A DNA stretch of 17,469 nucleotides from a virus. Positions 1-17,469 of this stretch are shown one piece after another. A program made the position numbers and the translations under genes. Numbering within the stretch: position 1 is the stretch's first letter; every line of letters begins with the position of its first letter. Where the stretch lies: the IMG/VR virus record IMGVR_UViG_3300045988_160567, positions 1-17,469 of that record; one strand, written 5' to 3'. Under the pieces are notes generated by a model. The model saw only the letters and a list, made by a program, of their open reading frames with translations. It was not told the origin of the DNA and ran no database searches.

Positions 1-284
1 GGGGTATATATACAGAAATCGTCACATCTTCCCCATCCGTCACACCTGTAACATCCGTAACATGATCTGCATCACACACCCTCTAGAACGCGTTGTAACC
101 CACCTAGAACGGACGAAAAAATCGGCCTAGGCGTGGACACACACCCACCATGGCGATTGCTTCTAGGGCCCTTACAGCGCGTCTGAGGCCCATCTGGGCG
201 GGCTGGGTTCGGCGTTGTGTCTCGGGATCACCCGCCGGCTGTTTGTGGCCCACGTCACACCAATTCTGGTGAGGCGCATCACAG

Positions 285-450
285 CGGGCGCCTGTCAAGG
301 GCATTCTGTGTGGCGTTGGTCACGCACCCTAATTAACCGATCGGTTAAATGGCGCGCACCACAATCACGGTTTGTCAAGATCGAGCGAGCGTGGCGTCGG
401 TCACAAACTGTCCCTAAATTAACCGGCCGGTCGGTTGGTGACCGACCGCA
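285..450. repeat. Two tandem ~80-86-bp modules inside ITR-L, mirrored at about 17020-17185
   Basis: Each module has four parts in the same order. First, GGCGCATCACA / GCGCGCACCACA (274-284, 352-363). Second, TGTCAA, which is TTGACA on the other strand (293-298, 373-378). Third, GTGGCGTTGGTCAC / GTGGCGTCGGTCAC (310-323, 391-404). Fourth, CCCTAA(A)TTAACCG followed by a palindrome (333-348, 419-438). Confidence 0.7.
333..348. promoter_or_regulatory. Perfect 16-bp palindrome TTAACCGATCGGTTAA, candidate protein-binding site or operator
   Basis: Read directly from the sequence. An identical copy lies in ITR-R at 17121-17136. A related partial palindrome, TTAACCGGCCGGT (419-431), sits in the next module. 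Confidence 0.45.
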
Positions 451-462
451 CACGAAACTTGG

Positions 463-491
463 TTGACATGGGCAGTCGTCGGTGCCATTAT
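463..491 (+). promoter_or_regulatory. Left early promoter (sigma-70/SigA-like)
   Basis: TTGACA (463-468), a 17-nt spacer ending in TGc (extended -10), then CATTAT (486-491). It lies about 50 nt upstream of the first left gene. The same architecture is present in ITR-R. Confidence 0.6.
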
Positions 492-2857: not shown

Positions 2858-3823
2858 ATGAGTGAGTTGGATGATCTTCGTGATGCTGTGCGCCGGGAGA
2901 ATCGGCGCGCGGGGAGGAAGTTGGCGTCTATCGCCAAGGGTACGTATGGTCTGCGTGGGCCGCTGGCGTATATGCGCGGGAAGGTCGAGGGTGTGGACGT
3001 TCGGGGCACTGAGTATGATCCTCGTGTGCCGGGCAGGCGCGTGGGGAGGATGACTACTGCGCAGGCTCGGGTCGCGTTGGAGCGTCTCACTGAGTTCAAT
3101 AACTCAAGGTCGGTGGGATTTTTCAGGGGAGTCGGCGGCGCGGTGATTTCTCGAAAGAATATGGCGGCGTACGCGTATGAGACGCGTCGGTATAATGAGG
3201 AACGTGCGGAATATCGTGCGCGGACGGCTAAGGTTCCGACGCCGTGGTCGGGGTTCGGGCGTACGGCTGAGGAAGTGCTGTCTTGGACGCGTCCGTCGCC
3301 GTGGGAGGCGCCTAAGAATCCTTTTGAGGATCATTTTGATCGTAAATTGCCTCTCCCCCAGCAGATCGTATCGGATGACGCCGCTAAGAAGTTGGCGGAT
3401 CATTTGGCGGAGGCTCGGTTGCCGCGTGGGTATGCGCGGCGGGCGGCTTTGGTGCGTGAGAATATTCGGGATATGGTGGCGCGCACGGGTGATAAGGATT
3501 TGCTGGAAACTATTATGGGCATGGACGATGAGACGCTCATGTTCGTGTGGACGGTGGACGGGACGCTCGCACGAAATATTTCATTCCGCTATGAAGCGGT
3601 GAAATATCTTGAATCGCCGCATCCGCGCACGAGTGAAGAAAAGTTGAAGTCGCGCACCGAGAACTTCCTCATGGGAATGGAGGATTCCCGCGCCGAGTTG
3701 GATCAATATTTGAAGGAGCTTTCCAGTGTCCGTGTCCCGTCGGCGCAGTCGTCGCAAAGGCGATCCTCTGGACGGCGTGGCGGTCGCGGATTTCGAGACG
3801 GACGCGGACGTCGCCGCCGATAG
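2858..3823 (+). CDS. Putative terminal protein, the primer for protein-primed replication (321 aa)
   Basis: The gene lies immediately upstream of, and overlaps, the protein-primed polymerase gene, as phi29 gene 3 does with gene 2. The N-terminus is basic. TAQARVALERLTEFNNSRSVGFF...VISRKNMAAYAYETRRYN is weakly similar to the phi29 terminal protein as I remember it. The C-terminal tail is Arg/Gly-rich. Confidence 0.65.
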   Translation: MSELDDLRDAVRRENRRAGRKLASIAKGTYGLRGPLAYMRGKVEGVDVRGTEYDPRVPGRRVGRMTTAQARVALERLTEFNNSRSVGFFRGVGGAVISRKNMAAYAYETRRYNEERAEYRARTAKVPTPWSGFGRTAEEVLSWTRPSPWEAPKNPFEDHFDRKLPLPQQIVSDDAAKKLADHLAEARLPRGYARRAALVRENIRDMVARTGDKDLLETIMGMDDETLMFVWTVDGTLARNISFRYEAVKYLESPHPRTSEEKLKSRTENFLMGMEDSRAELDQYLKELSSVRVPSAQSSQRRSSGRRGGRGFRDGRGRRRR

Positions 3824-5426
3824 TACTCACGTGTGGGCGTGGTGTCTGCGTGAGGTGAATGCTGAGTGCGGGTACCAGTACGGCACGACTATTGATTCGT
3901 TCATGGCCCGCGTCCTGCATTCCGGGCTGGACGTGTATTTCCACAACCTGCGCTTTGACGGCAATTTCATTATCTACTGGGCTCTGACGCACGGTTACAA
4001 GCACATTGAAGTGGATTCGTCGAAGGATATCATCCCGGAGAATCACTTCTCATGTCTCATTGATGACATGGGGATGTTCTACGCGATTCGATTCCCGGAC
4101 GTCATCTTCAAAGACTCGCTCAAAAAACTGCCCATGACGGTCGGGCAGATGGCGAAAGCGTTCGAGTGCGATCAGGGGAAGGGCGAGATCGACTACACGC
4201 TCCCCCGTCCGGTTGGGTATGAGCCGACGGCGGCTGAGTGGGAGTATGTGCGCACGGATGTGAGTATCGTGGTGACGGCGTTGTCTGAGGTGATTCGTGA
4301 GGGTATGCGGGCGTTGACTGTGGCTTCGGACGCCCTGCACGAGTTCAGGGGCCTTTTCGGTTGGAAGAACTTCGAAAAATACTTCCCGCGCCTGCCGCTC
4401 GATATTGACGCGGATATTCGACGCGCATACAGGGGCGGTTTTACGTACGCGGATCGGCGGACGGCGGGGATGCTGGTTGAGAATGGGTCGGTTTATGACG
4501 TTAATTCTTTGTACCCGTATGTGATGCGCGAGCGGCCGCTCCCCTATGGTGTGCCGGTGCGTTTCGAGGGCGGGCCGCCGTCGGATGGTCTGTGGGTGGG
4601 TCATGTGACGCTGACTGCGCGGATCAGGCCAGATCATATTCCGTGCATTCAAGTGAGGTCGGGGTTTCGTGGTTCGTCGTCGGAGTATGCCGATGAGATC
4701 GTGGAGCCGACGACTTTCAGCGTGTCTTCGGTGGACTGGGCGCTGTGGAATGATCAGTACGATATTGAGGTTTACGCTTGGGATGGTGGCTGGCGGTTCG
4801 CGTCGCGACGGGGGTTCTTCGATTCTTATATTGATAAATGGGGCGCGATCAAGGCCGAATCCAAGGGCGGGAAACGGGCCATGGCGAAACTGTACCTTAA
4901 TTCTTTGTACGGGAAGTTCGGCAGTGGCACCGATGCGACGGGTCGCGTGCCCGTGATGGAGGATGGTGCCGTGCGTCTCGTGCAGGGTAGGGCGAGGACG
5001 CGTGAGCCGGTTTATACGGTGTTGGCGGTTTTTGTGACGTCATGGGCTCGGGACTATACTATTAGGACGGCGCAGAAGAATTATGATCGCTTCCTCTACG
5101 CGGATACTGACTCGCTGCATCTTCTGGGCGCTGAGGATCCTGTGGGTGCGGATGTGCATCCGACGCGGTTGGGTGCGTGGGCGCATGAGAGCGACTTTGA
5201 TAGTGCGGTTTTCAACCGGGCAAAGCAATACTGTGAGAGTAAAGACGGCATTAATGATACCCACATCGCCGGCCTGCCCCGCCACCTGGGAGACAAAATC
5301 TCCCCCATTGACATGTTGCGCGATCAATGTTGGGGCGGTAAACTAGTCCCGAAGAGGATTCCGGGCGGCGTGATCCTCCGAGAGACTTATTTCACATACG
5401 CCGCAGTGAGAGGAAGATCATCGTGA
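3726..5426 (+). CDS. Family-B, protein-primed DNA polymerase (phi29 gp2-like), 566 aa
   Basis: All expected motifs are present: ExoI ADFETD, ExoII HNLRFDGNFI, ExoIII YVRTDVSIV, AYRGGFTY, motif A DVNSLYPY, motif B KLYLNSLYGKFG, motif C LYADTDS, and the KxY motif RAKQY. The GTG start at 3726 lies 7 nt after the Shine-Dalgarno sequence AAGGAG (3713-3718). Confidence 0.97.
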   Translation: MSVSRRRSRRKGDPLDGVAVADFETDADVAADSTHVWAWCLREVNAECGYQYGTTIDSFMARVLHSGLDVYFHNLRFDGNFIIYWALTHGYKHIEVDSSKDIIPENHFSCLIDDMGMFYAIRFPDVIFKDSLKKLPMTVGQMAKAFECDQGKGEIDYTLPRPVGYEPTAAEWEYVRTDVSIVVTALSEVIREGMRALTVASDALHEFRGLFGWKNFEKYFPRLPLDIDADIRRAYRGGFTYADRRTAGMLVENGSVYDVNSLYPYVMRERPLPYGVPVRFEGGPPSDGLWVGHVTLTARIRPDHIPCIQVRSGFRGSSSEYADEIVEPTTFSVSSVDWALWNDQYDIEVYAWDGGWRFASRRGFFDSYIDKWGAIKAESKGGKRAMAKLYLNSLYGKFGSGTDATGRVPVMEDGAVRLVQGRARTREPVYTVLAVFVTSWARDYTIRTAQKNYDRFLYADTDSLHLLGAEDPVGADVHPTRLGAWAHESDFDSAVFNRAKQYCESKDGINDTHIAGLPRHLGDKISPIDMLRDQCWGGKLVPKRIPGGVILRETYFTYAAVRGRSS

Positions 5427-5614
5427 CTGAGGACCGGATGTGCAATATTTCCACTACTATTCCGCGCAATCTCTACGATTATGTGGACGACATGCACTGG
5501 CGCGAGCGGCGCAGCATCGCGTCAATCGTGCGTGACGCGATCCGAGACTGGGCACTGGCCCGCGGATGGGAGGATTGTGATACTCTTTTCTCGCAGGATT
5601 CCGAAGCGCAGTAG
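5423..5614 (+). CDS. Small ribbon-helix-helix (CopG/Arc/MetJ-like) DNA-binding protein, 63 aa
   Basis: ISTTIPRNLYDYVDDMHWRERRSIASIVRDAIRDWALARG fits a strand-helix-helix pattern. The GTG start overlaps the polymerase stop (GTGA) and follows the RBS GAGAGGAAG. It is the last gene of the early operon. Confidence 0.65.
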   Translation: MTEDRMCNISTTIPRNLYDYVDDMHWRERRSIASIVRDAIRDWALARGWEDCDTLFSQDSEAQ

Positions 5615-5700
5615 GCGCCCCGTCGAGATCGGCTCGCCGTGATAGGTGCTCGACGGATGTGATCGCAGGCCCCTGCCGCTACTGCGCGCGGGTGATTCTG

Positions 5701-5709
5701 TGTTATATT
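5701..5709 (+). promoter_or_regulatory. Candidate extended -10 element (TGTTATATT) of a late promoter
   Basis: TGn plus TATATT sits immediately upstream of the late operon. There is no recognisable -35 element, so the promoter may be activator-dependent. The call rests on sequence pattern only. Confidence 0.3.
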
Positions 5710-5754
5710 GGGACGGGGAATTGGATTTCAATTCCCCGTCCCGCTCTTTTATTT
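5710..5754 (+). terminator. Rho-independent terminator ending the left early operon
   Basis: Perfect 14-bp stem GGGACGGGGAATTG (5710-5723) / CAATTCCCCGTCCC (5729-5742) with loop GATTT, followed by GCTCTTTTATTT. Confidence 0.75.
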
Positions 5755-5767
5755 GAGAGGAAATGTG

Positions 5768-6076
5768 ATGGCTGAGTTTTCAGATCTCATCGCAGCACTG
5801 CAGTCCGACTCCCCGCCTGAGAGTATTTATGATGACTTGACCGCCGCCTACGGTGAGCGCGCACAGCTGGCCGAGTCGGCTGGCGCCCGTGTGGCCGAGC
5901 TGGAGGCGGCCAATGCCGCGCTCCTGGCGGAGATCGGGGACCTCAAGGCCCGGAATTATGACCTTCTCGTGCGCGTGGGGGATGATTCCCCGGCCGATTC
6001 GGGAGATTCCGGGGCTGGCGAGGATGAACGGGCGGAGACCATTACTGTGGATGATCTTTTCAAGGAGGATGAGTGA
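5768..6076 (+). CDS. Scaffolding protein (phi29 gp7-like), 102 aa
   Basis: ATG 5768 follows the RBS GAGAGGAAA. The protein is acidic with a helical coiled-coil character (AELEAANAALLAEIGDLKARNYDLL). Its C-terminus ETITVDDLFKEDE resembles phi29 gp7 ETITIEDLEAK. The gene lies directly upstream of the capsid gene. Confidence 0.8.
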   Translation: MAEFSDLIAALQSDSPPESIYDDLTAAYGERAQLAESAGARVAELEAANAALLAEIGDLKARNYDLLVRVGDDSPADSGDSGAGEDERAETITVDDLFKEDE

Positions 6077-7476: not shown

Positions 7477-7485
7477 CGATTTCGC

Positions 7486-7517
7486 GGGCGCCCGGGAATA
7501 TTATTTCCCGGGCGCCC
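7486..7517 (+). terminator. GC-rich hairpin after the capsid gene, a possible attenuator or RNA-stability element
   Basis: 13-bp stem GGGCGCCCGGGAA / TTCCCGGGCGCCC with loop TATTAT. No T-tract follows it, so it is probably a partial terminator or a processing/stability element. Confidence 0.4.
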
Positions 7518-7533
7518 GGGAAAGGATTATCGA

Positions 7534-12800: not shown

Positions 12801-14147
12801 ATGGCTTTTGACGCGCAGCATAAAGCCTGCATCATCGCAACACTCGCGCAAGTGGAGGCGTCCGGCAATTATGGCACGATTACCGCGCCGGACACGCTCT
12901 CACTGGGCATCGGGCAGTGGACCCAGGGCCGCGCATATGACCTGCTGAAAAGATTCCCCGCGGGCACGGACTTCGGCGCCACGGTCAATTCCTGGCTCGC
13001 CCAGGGCCGGGACTCGTGGACGATTTCCGCACGCAAATACCAATACCTCAATTCAGCGGACCGGGCGGCATTATCCGGCGCACTCGCATCCCAGACGGGC
13101 CACCAAATCCAAGACTCCCAGATGGAAACGGACCTGACAAATGACTATATTCCCCGGTGCGCCGAACTCGGCCTCGACCCCGAAACCGAGACCGAGGCGT
13201 GCATGCTCCTAATAGTGGTCATGCACCGCTGGGGAAATTACGCGCGCATCCTGACCCGCCTCGCTGAAGGCGCCGGCCACCCTGCCACACTCGATTCAAT
13301 GTTCGCCGCCGTAAAAGCCGAAGGCGAATACGCCGCCGTACCCGGCCGCTATGACACGGCCGTCCCCATGATCCGAAACCTCCAGACAAATGGGGTCCAG
13401 ATCACGGGCGGCGACGGCAGCCAGCCCGGCGCCGGCTACAAACCGGGCGACGATTCAGGCGGGAAATCCCCGAAGGATCAAGTGAAATTGGAGAAGAATA
13501 AACTTCCCCTTTACGTCAGTAAATCGGGTTCCAACTTAATTCTCCACTACGCCGACGGGCGCACCATCACAGCCAGCCCCACACCCACAGGAGAGCACTG
13601 GCAGATATCCACATCCCAAGCGATCCACACGGGATCCACCGGCATCGGCACCGGACAGGCCCCGCCCGGCACCGGAGGCCAGCCCGGCGGCGGCGGCGGC
13701 GGCACAGCCGACGAGCGCATCCACAGGATGACCCAGGAGGCGCTGTCCACGCTCGGGAAATACGTCTACCACCAATGGTATCAGCCGCGACTTCATCCCG
13801 ACCAGTCCGGCGTATCCGACTGCTCCGGATGGACCTGGTACCTCATGATGAAATATTTGGGTGTGGATATTGACCCCAATGGCACGGCGGCAATTTGGGA
13901 TTCCCCTACCGGCTATGTAGTCGCCCAAGGTTCGGGGACATTCAACGCCGTGTCCCAGATCAAGGAGGGCGATTTGATCGTCTGCCGATGGTGGAGCGGC
14001 GGCGGCCACATAGAATACTGCCCCCAAACCGCCACCGACCTGTCCGTCGGAATGCGCGGACCCGACGGCGCAATGGGCCCCAACGGGCCATCGCCCGCCA
14101 CGTCACTTTTCACCGGATGCGAATGGAAATTGAAGCGATATGTCTGA
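12801..14147 (+). CDS. Tail-associated cell-wall hydrolase (phi29 gp13 analogue), 448 aa: lysozyme/transglycosylase-like N-domain, Gly/Pro linker, NlpC/P60-type cysteine peptidase C-domain
   Basis: The N-domain QVEASGNYG...LGIGQWTQ is SLT/lysozyme-like. The linker is GIGTGQAPPGTGGQPGGGGGGT. The C-domain has DCSGWTWYLM (catalytic Cys) and WWSGGGHIEYC (His). The position matches phi29 gene 13. Confidence 0.8.
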   Translation: MAFDAQHKACIIATLAQVEASGNYGTITAPDTLSLGIGQWTQGRAYDLLKRFPAGTDFGATVNSWLAQGRDSWTISARKYQYLNSADRAALSGALASQTGHQIQDSQMETDLTNDYIPRCAELGLDPETETEACMLLIVVMHRWGNYARILTRLAEGAGHPATLDSMFAAVKAEGEYAAVPGRYDTAVPMIRNLQTNGVQITGGDGSQPGAGYKPGDDSGGKSPKDQVKLEKNKLPLYVSKSGSNLILHYADGRTITASPTPTGEHWQISTSQAIHTGSTGIGTGQAPPGTGGQPGGGGGGTADERIHRMTQEALSTLGKYVYHQWYQPRLHPDQSGVSDCSGWTWYLMMKYLGVDIDPNGTAAIWDSPTGYVVAQGSGTFNAVSQIKEGDLIVCRWWSGGGHIEYCPQTATDLSVGMRGPDGAMGPNGPSPATSLFTGCEWKLKRYV

Positions 14148-16080: not shown

Positions 16081-16608
16081 TCAGCGCCACTCATCCTCAG
16101 GCAGCAGCTCACAGACGAGGCCCTTAGCGATGGCGTAGTCGTGAGGGTCGCCATACGGCAGATCTGAGATCACGCCATCCTCATCCCGCAGGATATAGGC
16201 GGAGTAGTGTTCCCGATCCACGATCACACCATCCGGACGCACCGTCACAGTGTGGCCGCGATCGGCCAGATACCGCAGATCATCGAGATCCTCAGTGTCC
16301 AGGACGACCCCCACGCGCCTACCGCGCGGCGCATACGCGATCTCATCATCGGGCCCCGCCTCCACGCAGTTGTTCCAGTGACCCGACCTAGAGATATTGA
16401 TCGACTTCCCCCACTGAGCCACAGCGGGACTGTCCAGACCCGTGTCCAGCGTGATACTGATAGCCCCGCAGTTACGATCCACCTTGACGTCCCAGTTGTA
16501 GGGGCAGTCCCGCATGTACGCCAGATACCGCGTGATATCCTCGGCCGTCTTGTTTCGCGGCCAGTTCACGATGAAAGCGTCCCGCGGCTTAGAATAGAGA
16601 GCATACAT
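16081..16608 (-). CDS. Hypothetical right-end early protein (175 aa)
   Basis: Strong RBS AGGAGGAAATGAAATG on the minus strand. GC content is high, like the late genes. No motif recognised. Confidence 0.75.
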   Translation of the reverse strand: MYALYSKPRDAFIVNWPRNKTAEDITRYLAYMRDCPYNWDVKVDRNCGAISITLDTGLDSPAVAQWGKSINISRSGHWNNCVEAGPDDEIAYAPRGRRVGVVLDTEDLDDLRYLADRGHTVTVRPDGVIVDREHYSAYILRDEDGVISDLPYGDPHDYAIAKGLVCELLPEDEWR

Positions 16609-16688: not shown

Positions 16689-16925
16689 TTACCGAACGGT
16701 GTTCTGGGTCACGGCGGCCCAGAACTCATCGTCCTCCGAGGCGATGAAAAATCGGGTCATGTACCCGTGCCCCTGCCGACCCAGGACGGCGTCGGCGATC
16801 GCGTCGATACCGTAGTCATCGACGTCGCCGCCCGCCTCGGCGATGATATCCCGGATCGCCTTCACCGCATCGTTGCGGGACGTGTAGGCGGCCGTCGCGT
16901 CGTTGGGGTTCACCTGAGTGATCAT
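16689..16925 (-). CDS. Hypothetical small acidic right-end early protein (78 aa)
   Basis: The ATG start follows the ITR-derived RBS CAGAGAGGAACAGAAAG, so its promoter and leader are the mirror of the left early ones. It has about 13 Asp/Glu against about 6 Arg/Lys. Confidence 0.75.
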   Translation of the reverse strand: MITQVNPNDATAAYTSRNDAVKAIRDIIAEAGGDVDDYGIDAIADAVLGRQGHGYMTRFFIASEDDEFWAAVTQNTVR

Positions 16926-16977
16926 CTTTCTGTTCCTCTCTGTTGGGTTGGTCCATCACCTCTGTGGTGATGGGTTA

Positions 16978-17006
16978 ATAGTGGCATTAGTGCTGGCCCG
17001 CGTCAA
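16978..17006 (-). promoter_or_regulatory. Right early promoter, the mirror of 463-491
   Basis: On the minus strand: TTGACG (17006-17001), a 17-nt spacer ending in TGc, then CACTAT (16983-16978). It is followed by the perfect hairpin CCATCACC/GGTGATGG (16953-16973). Confidence 0.6.
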
Positions 17007-17120
17007 GCCGGTTTCGTGTGAGCCTGGTCACCAACCGACCGGCCGGTTAATTTAGGGACAGTTTGTGACCGACGCCACGCTCGCTCGATCTTGACAAACC
17101 GCGAATGTGATGCGCCCCAT

Positions 17121-17136
17121 TTAACCGATCGGTTAA
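17121..17136. promoter_or_regulatory. Perfect 16-bp palindrome TTAACCGATCGGTTAA, ITR-R copy
   Basis: Identical to 333-348 although the flanking ITR sequence differs. Confidence 0.45.
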
Positions 17137-17469
17137 TTTGGGTGCGTGACCAACGCCACATAAAAGGGTCTTGACAAGCGCCGGCTGTGATGCGCCTCAC
17201 GGAAATTGATGTGACGTGGACCACAAACACGCAGTCGGCCACCACGAGACACAGCACCGGACCCAGCCGACTCAGACGGCCCTCAGACGCGCTGTAAGGG
17301 CCCTAGAAGCGATCGGCATAGGTGGGTGTGTGTCCATGCCTAGGCCGATTTTTTCGTCCGTTCTAGGTGGGTTACAACGCGTTCTAGAGGGTGTGTGATG
17401 TAGATCATGTTACGGATGTTACTAGTGTGACTGATGGGGAAATTGAGGCGTTTTCTGCATATATACCCC

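Follow-up and report, generated by a model that had tools for sequence, protein, structure and literature searches.

A CRP/FNR-type box at the early promoters of Av-1/phi29-like podophages and its array in long terminal repeats: a candidate site of host-read transcription control

The control of early transcription near the ends of small linear phage genomes is best described for phi29. In its switch region, p4 sites 1–4 and a p6 complex between the promoters A2c, A2b, and A3 spread the sites of a small phage-encoded regulator over about 200 bp at early promoters, at a fixed distance from the polymerase site. In phi29 and Nf, sites for a host global regulator, the Spo0A "0A boxes", are found both at the early promoters and close to the ends of the genome and couple the phage to the state of its host (PMC2731898). 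In the tectivirus GIL01, LexA boxes place early promoters near the linear, TP-capped end under the control of a host factor and small phage proteins (PMC4551915, PMC6182141).

Among bacterial transcription factors, the CRP/FNR operators (of E. coli CRP, Corynebacterium GlxR, Mycobacterium Rv3676, and Gardnerella CRP) are 16-bp inverted repeats whose half-sites are separated by 6 bp. Their GTG/CAC cores are conserved, as are the T and A of TCACA, whereas the spacer is free, and the operators stand at a set distance from the −35 element of a sigma-70-type promoter. Those of E. coli CRP are centred at −61.5 (class I) or −41.5 (class II), and −71.5 also counts among the canonical activating positions. 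Dimeric host-factor sites also occur in another protein-primed linear genome, that of adenovirus, whose inverted terminal repeats (ITRs) carry sites for NFI and Oct-1. On regulation in the branch of the phi29 family that comprises the Av-1-like phages of actinobacteria, a literature search found no paper.

The window analysed here, a stretch of 17,469 nucleotides, represents the complete 17.5-kb genome of such an Av-1/phi29-like podophage, which resembles Actinomyces phages. With its ITRs, a match to DNA_pol_B_2 (2.9e-50), and a homologue of the TP of Av-1 (1.7e-24), it has the features of a protein-primed replicon, and it also encodes a packaging ATPase and a connector of the phi29 type. Lysin similarity narrows the host to Actinomycetales/Bifidobacteriales. 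Neither the first 8 kb nor the ITR has a nucleotide match in the GenBank phage collection, a search of reference bacterial genomes with the polymerase found no relative, and a BLAST search of the ITR against all collected loci returned only known relatives. Both genome ends form an imperfect ITR of about 545 bp, with 86.3% identity over 549 columns of an end-to-end alignment; the left ITR (positions 1–545) and its mirror on the right (16925–17469) extend from GGGGTATATATA as far as the first start codon of either side (GTG at 541 on the plus strand and ATG at 16925 on the minus strand), have counterparts in L001/L059, and are the sole long non-coding stretches of the genome. From the terminus inwards, the left ITR comprises an array of boxes and palindromes, the early promoter, a leader, and a ribosome-binding site. 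The late genes begin near 5768, about 5 kb from the array and behind a conserved hairpin, and do not diverge from the array region; three GTGAT repeats are present upstream of them at 5639–5696.

The best sigma-70-type promoter-like site in a scan of the genome (10/12 matches plus TG) is located at 463–491 on the plus strand, with a −35 element TTGACA (463–468), a 17-bp spacer, TGC (483–485), and a −10 element CATTAT (486–491); in the right ITR, the corresponding −35 and −10 elements lie at 17006–17001 and 16983–16978. An alignment of nine ITR fragments shows that both hexamers and the TG are kept while the 17-nt spacer is variable, and the record of Av-1 annotates the homologous site as a promoter. 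Judged from its sequence, the inward-facing unit that consists of box 5 (see below), 10 bp, TTGACA, 17 bp, TGn, and CATTAT is a real early promoter, here called P(left). Close relatives have retained the control region, but even they do not agree in the first genes downstream of it.

Between the terminus and this strongest promoter-like site, the first-pass annotation had placed two tandem modules and a degenerate third copy, an arrangement that is borne out for the modules themselves, which lie upstream of the early promoter in both ITRs and display phylogenetic footprints of the kind typical of sites bound by proteins. In the left ITR, module A covers 268–349 and module B 350–437; their alignment has a z-score of 7.9 (0 of 500 shuffles reach its score), and the direct-repeat spacings are 81 and 86 bp. 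The array was not called by TRF, because the copies are too diverged. The third, distal copy (186–267), which includes box 1, shows weak similarity to module A and is marginal (z = 2.1; 18 of 500 shuffles). A further claim, the absolute identity of 368–443 with 17026–17101, is exact over 76 bp within arms that are otherwise 86% identical; a perfect run of 76 columns arises in 0.05% of permutations of the whole ITR (p = 5e-4) and in 0.003% of those of its inner part (150–545; p = 3e-5). This block holds an outward-facing TTGACA, box 4, palindrome 2, and half of box 5.

The modules are supported as non-coding. An open reading frame at 215–466 was rejected as a gene, with mismatches by codon position of 12/11/11 and 7/8/9 between the copies and no bias among them, and another on the minus strand (104–304) was rejected because its start is not kept in the right arm. 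Apart from the window and L330, which is the same genome, full modules were found only in L001/L059. The contigs of most relatives stop inside the ITR, and complete ITRs are available for two genomes of the close group, so that the conservation of modules A and B rests on the two arms of the window and on L001.

Two of the four motifs that had been reported from the modules as matching no described system, GTGGCGTYGGTCAC and TGTGATGCGCC, turn out to be instances of a single box, TGTG-N8-CACA, which spans 16 bp and is of the CRP/FNR type (TGTGA-N6-TCACA). The former is restricted to the ITRs, with perfect matches at 310, 391, 17065, and 17146 and five matches at up to two mismatches (0.39 expected); the latter is degenerate in the left module B and by itself not enriched genome-wide (10 matches vs. 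8.6 expected). With at most one mismatch, TGTG-N8-CACA matches the genome at ten sites, five in each ITR and none elsewhere, and the shorter GTG-N8-CAC at 13 (4.5 expected; 0 of 200 shuffles reach 13), ten of which are in the ITRs. The boxes have the form nGTGW-N6-TCACA, and all ten agree with TGTGA/TCACA at 8–9 of 10 positions.

In the left ITR, box 1 (TGTGGCCCACGTCACA, 9/10 to the CRP consensus) lies at 244–259, box 2 (GGTGAGGCGCATCACA, 9/10; TGTGATGCGCC read on the other strand) at 268–283, box 3 (TGTGGCGTTGGTCACG, 8/10; the GTGGCGTYGGTCAC motif) at 309–324, box 4 (CGTGGCGTCGGTCACA, 8/10) at 390–405, and the promoter-proximal box 5 (GGTGACCGACCGCACA) at 437–452, 10 bp upstream of the −35 element. 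The module and ITR alignments reveal an additional degenerate box 2' at 348–363 (AATGGCGCGCACCACA), which agrees at 6/10 positions by hand count and at 7/10 in the right arm and in L001. The right ITR has its boxes at 17210–17225, 17186–17201, 17145–17160, 17064–17079, and 17017–17032. Boxes 1, 3, and 4 carry TGTGG instead of TGTGA, and boxes 3 and 4 have a common spacer (GCGTYG), which indicates duplication rather than independent selection. The half-sites of box 4 are retained in L005 (TGGCATCGGTCACA), where the linker to palindrome 2 differs. Outside the boxes, TCAC words show no clear enrichment in the window.

Several other operators were considered for the boxes. The Rex box, TTGTGAA-N4-TTCACAA, was rejected because positions 6 and 11 of the boxes are not A and T, and the dre site of DasR because it fits only the left half of box 3 of Av-1; the actinobacterial LexA box, parS, and the DtxR/IdeR boxes were set aside because their sequences do not fit.

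Three boxes per arm stand 10–11 bp from a TTGACA, forming one inward and two outward units. On the minus strand of the left ITR, the outward hexamers lie at 293–298, 10 bp from box 3 and with GCCTCA at 17 bp, the −10 position, which is occupied by box 2, and at 373–378, 11 bp from box 4, with GCGCCA at 17 bp and CATTTA only at 21 bp; their counterparts in the right ITR are at 17171–17176 and 17091–17096. The outward TTGACA hexamers noted in the first-pass annotation are thus conserved in the right arm and in L001 and are real, yet they are parts of a box–10 bp–TTGACA unit that is laid out as in the real promoter. Neither is followed by a −10 element (an A2/T6 hexamer) 16–19 bp downstream, and both are absent from the list of the promoter scan. 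Modules A and B accordingly read as two outward-facing, diverged copies of the upstream half of the early promoter that lack its −10 element, in whose place each has a further box (2' behind the box 4 unit, 2 behind the box 3 unit). The composite of a box, a short linker, and TTGAC occurs six times in the window and four times in Av-1, always within the ITRs, at an expectation of 0.04 per genome.

A box exactly 10 bp from TTGAC, together with a −35/−10 pair, is found at the early promoters of five lineages (the window group, L007/L008/L018, L016/L017, L324, and Av-1), whose polymerase identity extends down to 46%. The box of L007/L008/L018 is a single one and belongs to an internal promoter far from any end, and Av-1 has two of its three boxes next to the terminus, at 22–69. 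Among the 16 promoter-proximal boxes from these lineages, position 12 is T in 15 and position 16 is A in 13; the search pattern partly imposed positions 2–4 and 13–15 but not positions 12 and 16, which nevertheless fit TCACA. Positions 12, 14, 15, and 16 carry 1.1–2.0 bits, compared with at most 0.15 bits at positions 8, 9, and 11. Half-sites are kept while linkers and spacers change between the genomes. Conservation across the lineages does not extend to the accessory early genes but only to the TP, the polymerase, and a ribbon-helix-helix (RHH)-like protein.

Each module also contains a palindrome of the form ACCG-NN-CGGT flanked by TTAA. The previously reported perfect 16-bp palindrome, TTAACCGATCGGTTAA, is present at 333–348 and at 17121–17136; its core in the left arm (ACCG-AT-CGGT) lies at 336–345, and it extends to an imperfect palindrome of 34 bp (324–357). 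The region of palindrome 2 (412–437, CCCTAAATTAACCGGCCGGTCGGTTGG) has the core ACCG-GC-CGGT at 422–431, where ACCGGCCGGT is found, as it is at 17038–17047; in L001, palindrome 2 is a perfect 16-bp palindrome (AACCGACCGGTCGGTT). Conservation covers the ACCG and CGGT arms but not the dinucleotide between them (GC, AC, TA, AT). The word TTAACCG occurs seven times in the genome (1.25 expected), six of them in the ITRs. The 16-bp palindrome was encountered in about 40 other viral contigs, some 30 of which belong to one unrelated phage family of about 46% GC with a homologous context, and the others are singletons; these occurrences are near the chance level, and nothing is concluded from them. Scans of the collections with GTGGCGTCGGTCAC and TTAACCGATCGGTTAA (viral contigs) and ATCACCACAGAGGTGA (metagenome contigs) returned mostly chance matches.

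The small RHH-like protein of 63 amino acids encoded at 5423–5614 (plus strand), directly after the DNA polymerase gene, is the sole recognisable sequence-specific DNA binder of the phage and a candidate regulator. Its matches are weak but concordant (Pfam RHH_1, E = 0.016; RHH domain of NikR, E = 0.024), the top matches of a PDB profile search are mostly RHH proteins (E = 0.007–0.1), and the gene in the corresponding place of the Arthrobacter phage Mendel genome carries an RHH annotation; an AF2 monomer model was uninformative (pLDDT 69). The gene position is conserved in every relative examined, and the beta-strand MCNISTTIPR is invariant in 16 homologues. Among lineages with the common box, however, the DNA-reading strand differs (NISTTIP, NLTARVP, SVGANIP, TVSLALP), and a lineage with 48% polymerase identity (L009–L017) has kept ACCG-NN-CGGT with a different strand. 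Perhaps the RHH protein reads the palindromes, a candidate pairing suggested by their co-occurrence.

The modules are probably best explained, at a likelihood of about 0.5, as a transcription-control array that serves the early promoters in both ITRs and whose boxes would be read by a dimeric helix-turn-helix regulator, most probably a CRP-family protein of the host. Two arguments favour a host reader: transcription from the early promoters has to begin at a time when no phage protein is yet present, and lineages with different phage regulators have the box in common. The fixed spacing between box and −35 element suggests a direct contact with RNA polymerase, whatever the sign of its effect; box 5 would thereby set the activity of the early promoter at both ends. 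The upstream boxes with their −35-like hexamers could act as cooperative or looping sites or hold polymerase non-productively, and the lineage-specific palindromes may be operators through which the phage RHH protein shuts down the early promoters later in infection. Actinobacterial CRP proteins have one common DNA-binding signature (PMC10187061), and the CRP of Gardnerella binds TGTGA-N6-TCACA without cAMP (PMC11445507).

The putative sites share with CRP/FNR operators the 16-bp inverted repeat with its 6-bp spacer, the pattern of conserved positions, and the fixed relation to the −35 element. They differ in that the distal half-site is often GTGG or GTGT, that five copies are packed into 210 bp, and that the promoter-proximal box is not at a canonical activating position: its centre is at approximately −53 to −56 from the predicted start (about −53.5, or −56.5 if the −10 element is TATTAA), not at −41.5 or at −61.5/−71.5.

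As in phi29, regulator sites extend over about 200 bp at early promoters, a small phage-encoded regulator is available, and the sites are at a fixed distance from that of polymerase. The analogy to p4 and p6 drawn in the first-pass annotation is nonetheless functional at best. The open reading frames scanned had no match to p4 or p6 in Pfam, PHROG, or NCBIfam, positions 1–545 contain no site of the p4 operator type (5'-AACTTTTT-15 bp-AAAATGTT-3', i.e., CTTTTT-15 bp-AAAATG), and the distant late genes offer no divergent late promoter. Moreover, the region is duplicated within long ITRs, whereas the ITR of phi29 measures 6 bp (PMC4974454). The 0A boxes correspond in principle, as sites of a host global regulator, but belong to another regulator family with another motif, and Spo0A represses the early promoters. 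GIL01, in turn, is temperate and has SOS boxes, another promoter architecture, and sites outside any ITR array.

The strongest competitor of a host CRP-family reader, still an improbable one, is the phage RHH protein, which would bind the boxes, alone or together with the palindromes, as a p4-like late repressor of both early promoters without any host factor. Its singular status as a recognisable DNA binder and its conserved gene position speak for this assignment. Heptads that contain ATCAC, in more than one orientation, are the targets of RHH proteins such as omega; TCAC words are likewise present in a near-invariant everted repeat (498–514, ATCACC-ACAGA-GGTGAC) that coincides with the predicted start of the transcript, and GTGAT forms the three repeats at 5639–5696. 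By contrast, the box is common to lineages whose RHH beta-strands differ at most positions, a fixed spacing to the −35 element of early promoters would be unusual for a protein made only later, and an inverted GTGA/TCAC pair at 11 bp centre-to-centre is the classic geometry of a helix-turn-helix dimer.

Much less probable is a role of the array as an auxiliary replication element of the protein-primed origins, with factor sites that stimulate or gate initiation at the ends, comparable to NFI/Oct-1 or p6/Spo0A. Such a role would be in keeping with the presence of the array in the ITRs of both ends, with the terminal location of two of the three boxes of Av-1, and with the block of replication initiation by Spo0A sites at the ends of phi29, where the same boxes repress early promoters (PMC2731898). 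The boxes of the window, however, are 244–452 bp away from the terminus, and the sole feature conserved throughout the clade is the fixed spacing to the −35 element, which is found also at the internal promoters of L007/L008/L018. The auxiliary-origin sites of adenovirus abut the core origin and act on replication, whereas the conserved relationship here is to a promoter.

It is similarly improbable that the modules are a neutral, functionless relic, i.e., tandem or inverted duplications of the promoter region that are kept alike only by homogenisation of the ITRs. The descent of modules A and B from the upstream half of the promoter is recognisable, their box spacers are similar (CCGACG, CCAACG, CCGACC), unit B continues as CATTTAACCGATC, comparable with CATTATTAAGCCATC of the promoter, and the assemblies of relatives break here, which points to arm-to-arm identity. 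Yet the block with box 4, palindrome 2, and TTGACA is 100% identical in arms that have diverged by 14% (p = 3e-5 to 5e-4), and half-sites are kept between genomes while linkers and spacers change.

Finally, the outward units may be activator-dependent promoters directed towards the termini, which would produce a non-coding RNA from the ITR, such as a packaging RNA, or activate the origins by transcription. The pRNA gene of phi29 is situated at the left end and transcribed outward; its coordinates are 147–320 (PMC11476376). Both outward units share the box-to-(−35) geometry of the real promoter, the ITRs are the only long non-coding stretches, and no pRNA was found despite the packaging ATPase and connector of the phi29 type. 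An Rfam search for pRNA or other structured RNA found nothing relevant in the window, a silence that is uninformative because the model also misses the pRNA annotated in Av-1. A structured RNA at 105–270 was rejected: the predicted fold of the region is no more stable than that of shuffled sequences (z = −0.5 and −1.3), and the three copies show no compensatory pairs. With no −10 element 16–19 bp downstream of either hexamer, transcription towards the termini is the least likely of these explanations, and it is hardly more credible that the units work without a canonical −10 element to yield such an RNA or to open the origins.

The comparison across lineages points to a clade-wide design of early promoters, in which exactly 10 bp separate the −35 element from an upstream CRP-type box; in the long ITRs of this phage, the box appears to have been amplified into a five-box array and joined by a second, lineage-specific class of palindromes. 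Were the boxes read by a CRP-family regulator of the host, the onset of transcription at both ends of these strictly lytic-looking phages would be coupled to the metabolic state of the host, in parallel to the control of phi29 by Spo0A, and mutations in the boxes or host crp mutants would provide a handle on how phages of actinobacteria from the mouth and the gut control their early genes. Should the outward units be promoters after all, a single CRP-type signal of the host would gate early transcription, replication, and packaging together. The everted repeat at 498–514 may be either a leader hairpin or an operator; as a hairpin, it has a predicted folding energy of −9 to −18 kcal/mol, with z-scores from −1.1 to −5.0.

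The window (17,469 bp) comprises the whole linear genome of a podophage of the phi29 type, and GGGGTATATATA is read directly at both ends. Besides a protein-primed family-B DNA polymerase (3726-5426; Pfam DNA_pol_B_2, 2.9e-50) and a terminal-protein homologue (2858-3823; 27% identity to that of Actinomyces phage Av-1, 1.7e-24), it encodes a phi29-type major capsid protein, tail knob, connector, and gp16 packaging ATPase. Av-1 is the nearest annotated isolate (46% polymerase identity), and an independent ENA assembly (L330) has 15,426 nt identical to the window. The host probably belongs to Actinomycetales or Bifidobacteriales, because the N-terminal domain of the lysin shares 53-57% sequence identity with proteins from Actinomyces MAGs, Trueperella, and Bifidobacterium. 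A tail/antireceptor-like protein with an NlpC/P60 C-terminus (12801-14147) is better conserved (53-56%) than either the capsid protein (48-49%) or the polymerase when distant lineages are compared, which hints at common host surface targets.

The inverted terminal repeats (ITRs) are imperfect and about 545 bp long; their arms are 86.3% identical over 549 columns in an alignment of the genome ends and, at either end, extend through the promoter, leader, ribosome-binding site (RBS), and initial codons of the first gene. A 76-bp block of absolute identity between the arms, reported in the first-pass annotation, was recovered at 368-443 and 17026-17101; its length exceeds the expectation from mismatch density both for the whole ITR (p = 5e-4) and for positions 150-545 (p = 3e-5). 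Every motif listed in that annotation was located, including a 16-bp perfect palindrome at 333-348 (palindrome 1), the core ACCGGCCGGT at 422-431 of palindrome 2 (412-437), GTGGCGTYGGTCAC at 310 and 391, and TGTCAA, the plus-strand reading of an outward TTGACA, at 293 and 373. The proposed repetition holds for modules A (268-349) and B (350-437), which are significantly similar (z = 7.9), whereas the "third copy" distal to them (about 186-267) is marginal (z = 2.1). An 83-codon open reading frame across the modules (215-466, plus strand) is open in both arms of the window and in the relative L001; a coding role was rejected, as substitutions are spread without bias over codon positions and an RBS is lacking.

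The ITR part best conserved between the arms is the terminal 150 bp (1-150 and 17320-17469; 93% identity over 1-149, 96-98% from 51 to 150). Its short direct repeats (CGTCACA, GTAACAT, and CTAGAAC, twice each; TRF period 9 at 34-63) are probably origin elements; the words GTAACAT and CATCACA are present also in Av-1, about 60-70 bp from the ends. The genome body strongly avoids CTAG and TTAA, but the ITRs contain them (CTAG: 4 observed, 0.18 expected from body frequency).

The motifs were searched again (REINTERPRETING the motifs) across the whole genome with the patterns GTG-N8-CAC and TGTG-N8-CACA. GTG-N8-CAC has 13 matches against 4.5 expected, a number reached by 0/200 shuffles, and 10 of the 13 lie in the ITRs. 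With at most one mismatch, TGTG-N8-CACA matches ten times, always in the ITRs and five times per arm (boxes 1-5 at 244-259, 268-283, 309-324, 390-405, and 437-452, with mirror images in the right arm). All ten copies are 16 bp long and fit the CRP/FNR consensus TGTGA-N6-TCACA at 8-9 of 10 positions. The motifs TGTGATGCGCC and GTGGCGTYGGTCAC are the same kind of element, because both are boxes of this type. Box 2' (348-363), a degenerate sixth copy, makes module B complete.

Three boxes per arm stand 10-11 bp from a TTGACA hexamer. The inward unit (box 5, 10 bp, TTGACA at 463-468, 17 bp, TGC, CATTAT at 486-491) is the top sigma-70-like promoter in a scan of the whole genome. The outward units B (box 4, 11 bp, TTGACA at 378-373) and A (box 3, 10 bp, TTGACA at 298-293) lack a -10; at 9 bp downstream from their TTGACA stands another box (2' or 2), and next comes palindrome 1 in unit B or box 1 in unit A. 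Because the three -35-linked boxes have similar spacers (CCGACC, CCGACG, CCAACG) and the continuation of unit B, CATTTAACCGATC, resembles CATTATTAAGCCATC of the promoter, modules A and B appear to be inverted duplicates of the upstream promoter half that have diverged.

The composite GTG-N8-CAC, N, TTGAC, expected 0.04 times per genome, occurs six times in the window and four times in Av-1, always within the ITRs. The imperfect ITR of Av-1 (about 245 bp) holds its annotated early promoter, and TGTGGTCTAGTTCACG ends exactly 10 bp before the -35. Among all loci related by polymerase, five lineages have the composite with a gap of 10 bp and a good -35/-10 pair behind it: the window group (L001, L002, L005, L039, L040), L324 (56% polymerase identity), L007/L008/L018 (50%), L016/L017 (48%), and Av-1 (46%). 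In L007/L008/L018, a single box belongs to an internal promoter, which lies about 970 nt into the contig; the preceding 330 nt or so, read as coding sequence, contain no second box, palindrome, or TTGAC, save one unrelated TTGAC in L008. The composite was not found at the ends of Arthrobacter, Curtobacterium, Glutamicibacter, and Microbacterium relatives. Glutamicibacter phage Voltaire (L326) has one box-12 bp-TTGACC composite (4793-4826), just on the 3' side of the post-polymerase small gene and upstream of the late genes, which may be due to chance.

In 16 promoter-proximal boxes, the T of TCACA is present in 15 and the A in 13, neither being imposed by the search, and the spacer positions carry almost zero information. 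An alignment of nine ITR fragments from six genomes retains the GTGA/TCACA half-sites, -35, TG, and -10, with variable box and promoter spacers. In palindrome 2, the ACCG/CGGT arms are kept around a changing central dinucleotide (GC, AC, TA, AT), and its linker to box 4 differs in L005 and L332. ACCG-NN-CGGT lies about 20 bp upstream of the box also in the 48% lineage (L013, L017). Judged from sequence, these patterns are signatures of two predicted classes of dimer-binding sites and a real promoter.

The sole ACCG-NN-CGGT outside the ITRs, ACCGAACGGT (16691-16712), overlaps a GTG-N8-CAC (16699-16712) as well as a weak promoter-like site, where the right-hand first gene ends and upstream of gene 16081-16608. 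TTAACCGATCGGTTAA recurs exactly in an unrelated phage family (L161-L199; IMG/VR contigs, ~46% GC), between 'accaaa' and 'aaaggag' just 5' of an RBS; the match looks like a coincidence at chance level, but the element may have an operator role in that family as well. Behind each early promoter, the leading genes have been exchanged, lost, or replaced in relatives at about 90% polymerase identity (541-2137 compared with L001, L002, L003, L005, and L332; 16689-16925 with L039 and L040). This region is a mosaic of accessory genes, and the control region upstream stays conserved.

The array is real, non-random, and evolutionarily constrained, and is best read as a regulatory one that controls early promoters. 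Because such promoters must work before phage proteins exist and the box is built in at fixed spacing, a host factor is suggested as its reader. The box has the sequence of a CRP/FNR operator, but its centre, at about -53.5 relative to the predicted start, fits neither class I nor class II, the canonical activator positions of CRP; with binding a prediction, it is called CRP-type in form only. Actinobacterial CRP proteins have one common DNA-binding signature (PMC10187061), and the CRP of Gardnerella (Bifidobacteriaceae) binds TGTGA-N6-TCACA without cAMP (PMC11445507).

The only early-region proteins common to box-carrying lineages are the terminal protein, the polymerase, and the small post-polymerase protein (5423-5614). 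The latter is a probable ribbon-helix-helix (RHH) protein, with weak matches to Pfam RHH_1 (E = 0.016) and the NikR RHH domain (E = 0.024) and mostly RHH proteins among the top matches of a PDB profile search; the gene at the equivalent position in phage Mendel is annotated RHH. It is unlikely to read the boxes itself, because its predicted DNA-reading strand varies between lineages (NISTTIP, NLTARVP, SVGANIP, TVSLALP) while the box is constant. As a reader of the lineage-specific palindromes, it is a natural candidate; at the equivalent place, Av-1 carries a different palindrome, of 38 bp.

The other alternatives also rank below early-promoter control. An origin-auxiliary role of the array in replication is improbable, as it accounts neither for the constant distance between box and -35 nor for the occurrence of this unit at internal promoters. 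Neutral duplication of the promoter region is slightly less credible still, leaving a perfectly conserved block unexplained at 14% arm divergence. Least plausible are outward units that act as true promoters, possibly for pRNA, given that they lack a -10, a folding signal, and covariation.

In function, the array most resembles the A2c/A2b/A3 control region of phi29 and the boxes for Spo0A or LexA in protein-primed phages; in phi29, Spo0A boxes repress early promoters and prevent initiation at the genome ends (PMC2731898). The array does not belong to the p4/p6 system, since the window phage has no p4/p6 homologues among the ORFs scanned, no p4 sites in 1-545, and no divergent late promoter. 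Factor-binding sites at phage early promoters are already known as a kind; three features appear to be undescribed, namely a 'box-10 bp-(-35)' promoter design shared across the clade, the multiplication of this design into outward pseudo-promoters that lack a -10, and its location within long ITRs.

Two adjoining CCCGGGCGCCCGGG palindromes between the capsid and tail-knob genes (7482-7526) are probably a terminator; a sub-threshold Rfam match to SAM-Chlorobi (E = 0.11) rests on these palindromes and was taken as chance. A strong hairpin with a 16-bp stem and a T-tract (5709-5743) directly precedes the RBS of the scaffold/late genes. It occupies the same position in every relative (L322, L332, L323, L324, Av-1) and its stem sequence differs from one to the next, implying compensatory change; it could act as a terminator of the early operon, as an attenuator, or as a 5' element in late mRNA. 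In most aligned relatives (the window group, L323, and weakly L324, not Av-1), the hairpin is preceded by a TGn-TATATT-like -10. In the RHH-scaffold intergenic region (5639-5696), the word GTGAT occurs three times in the same orientation (5639, 5659, 5692). These copies are conserved in close relatives and may represent operator half-sites close to the late promoter.
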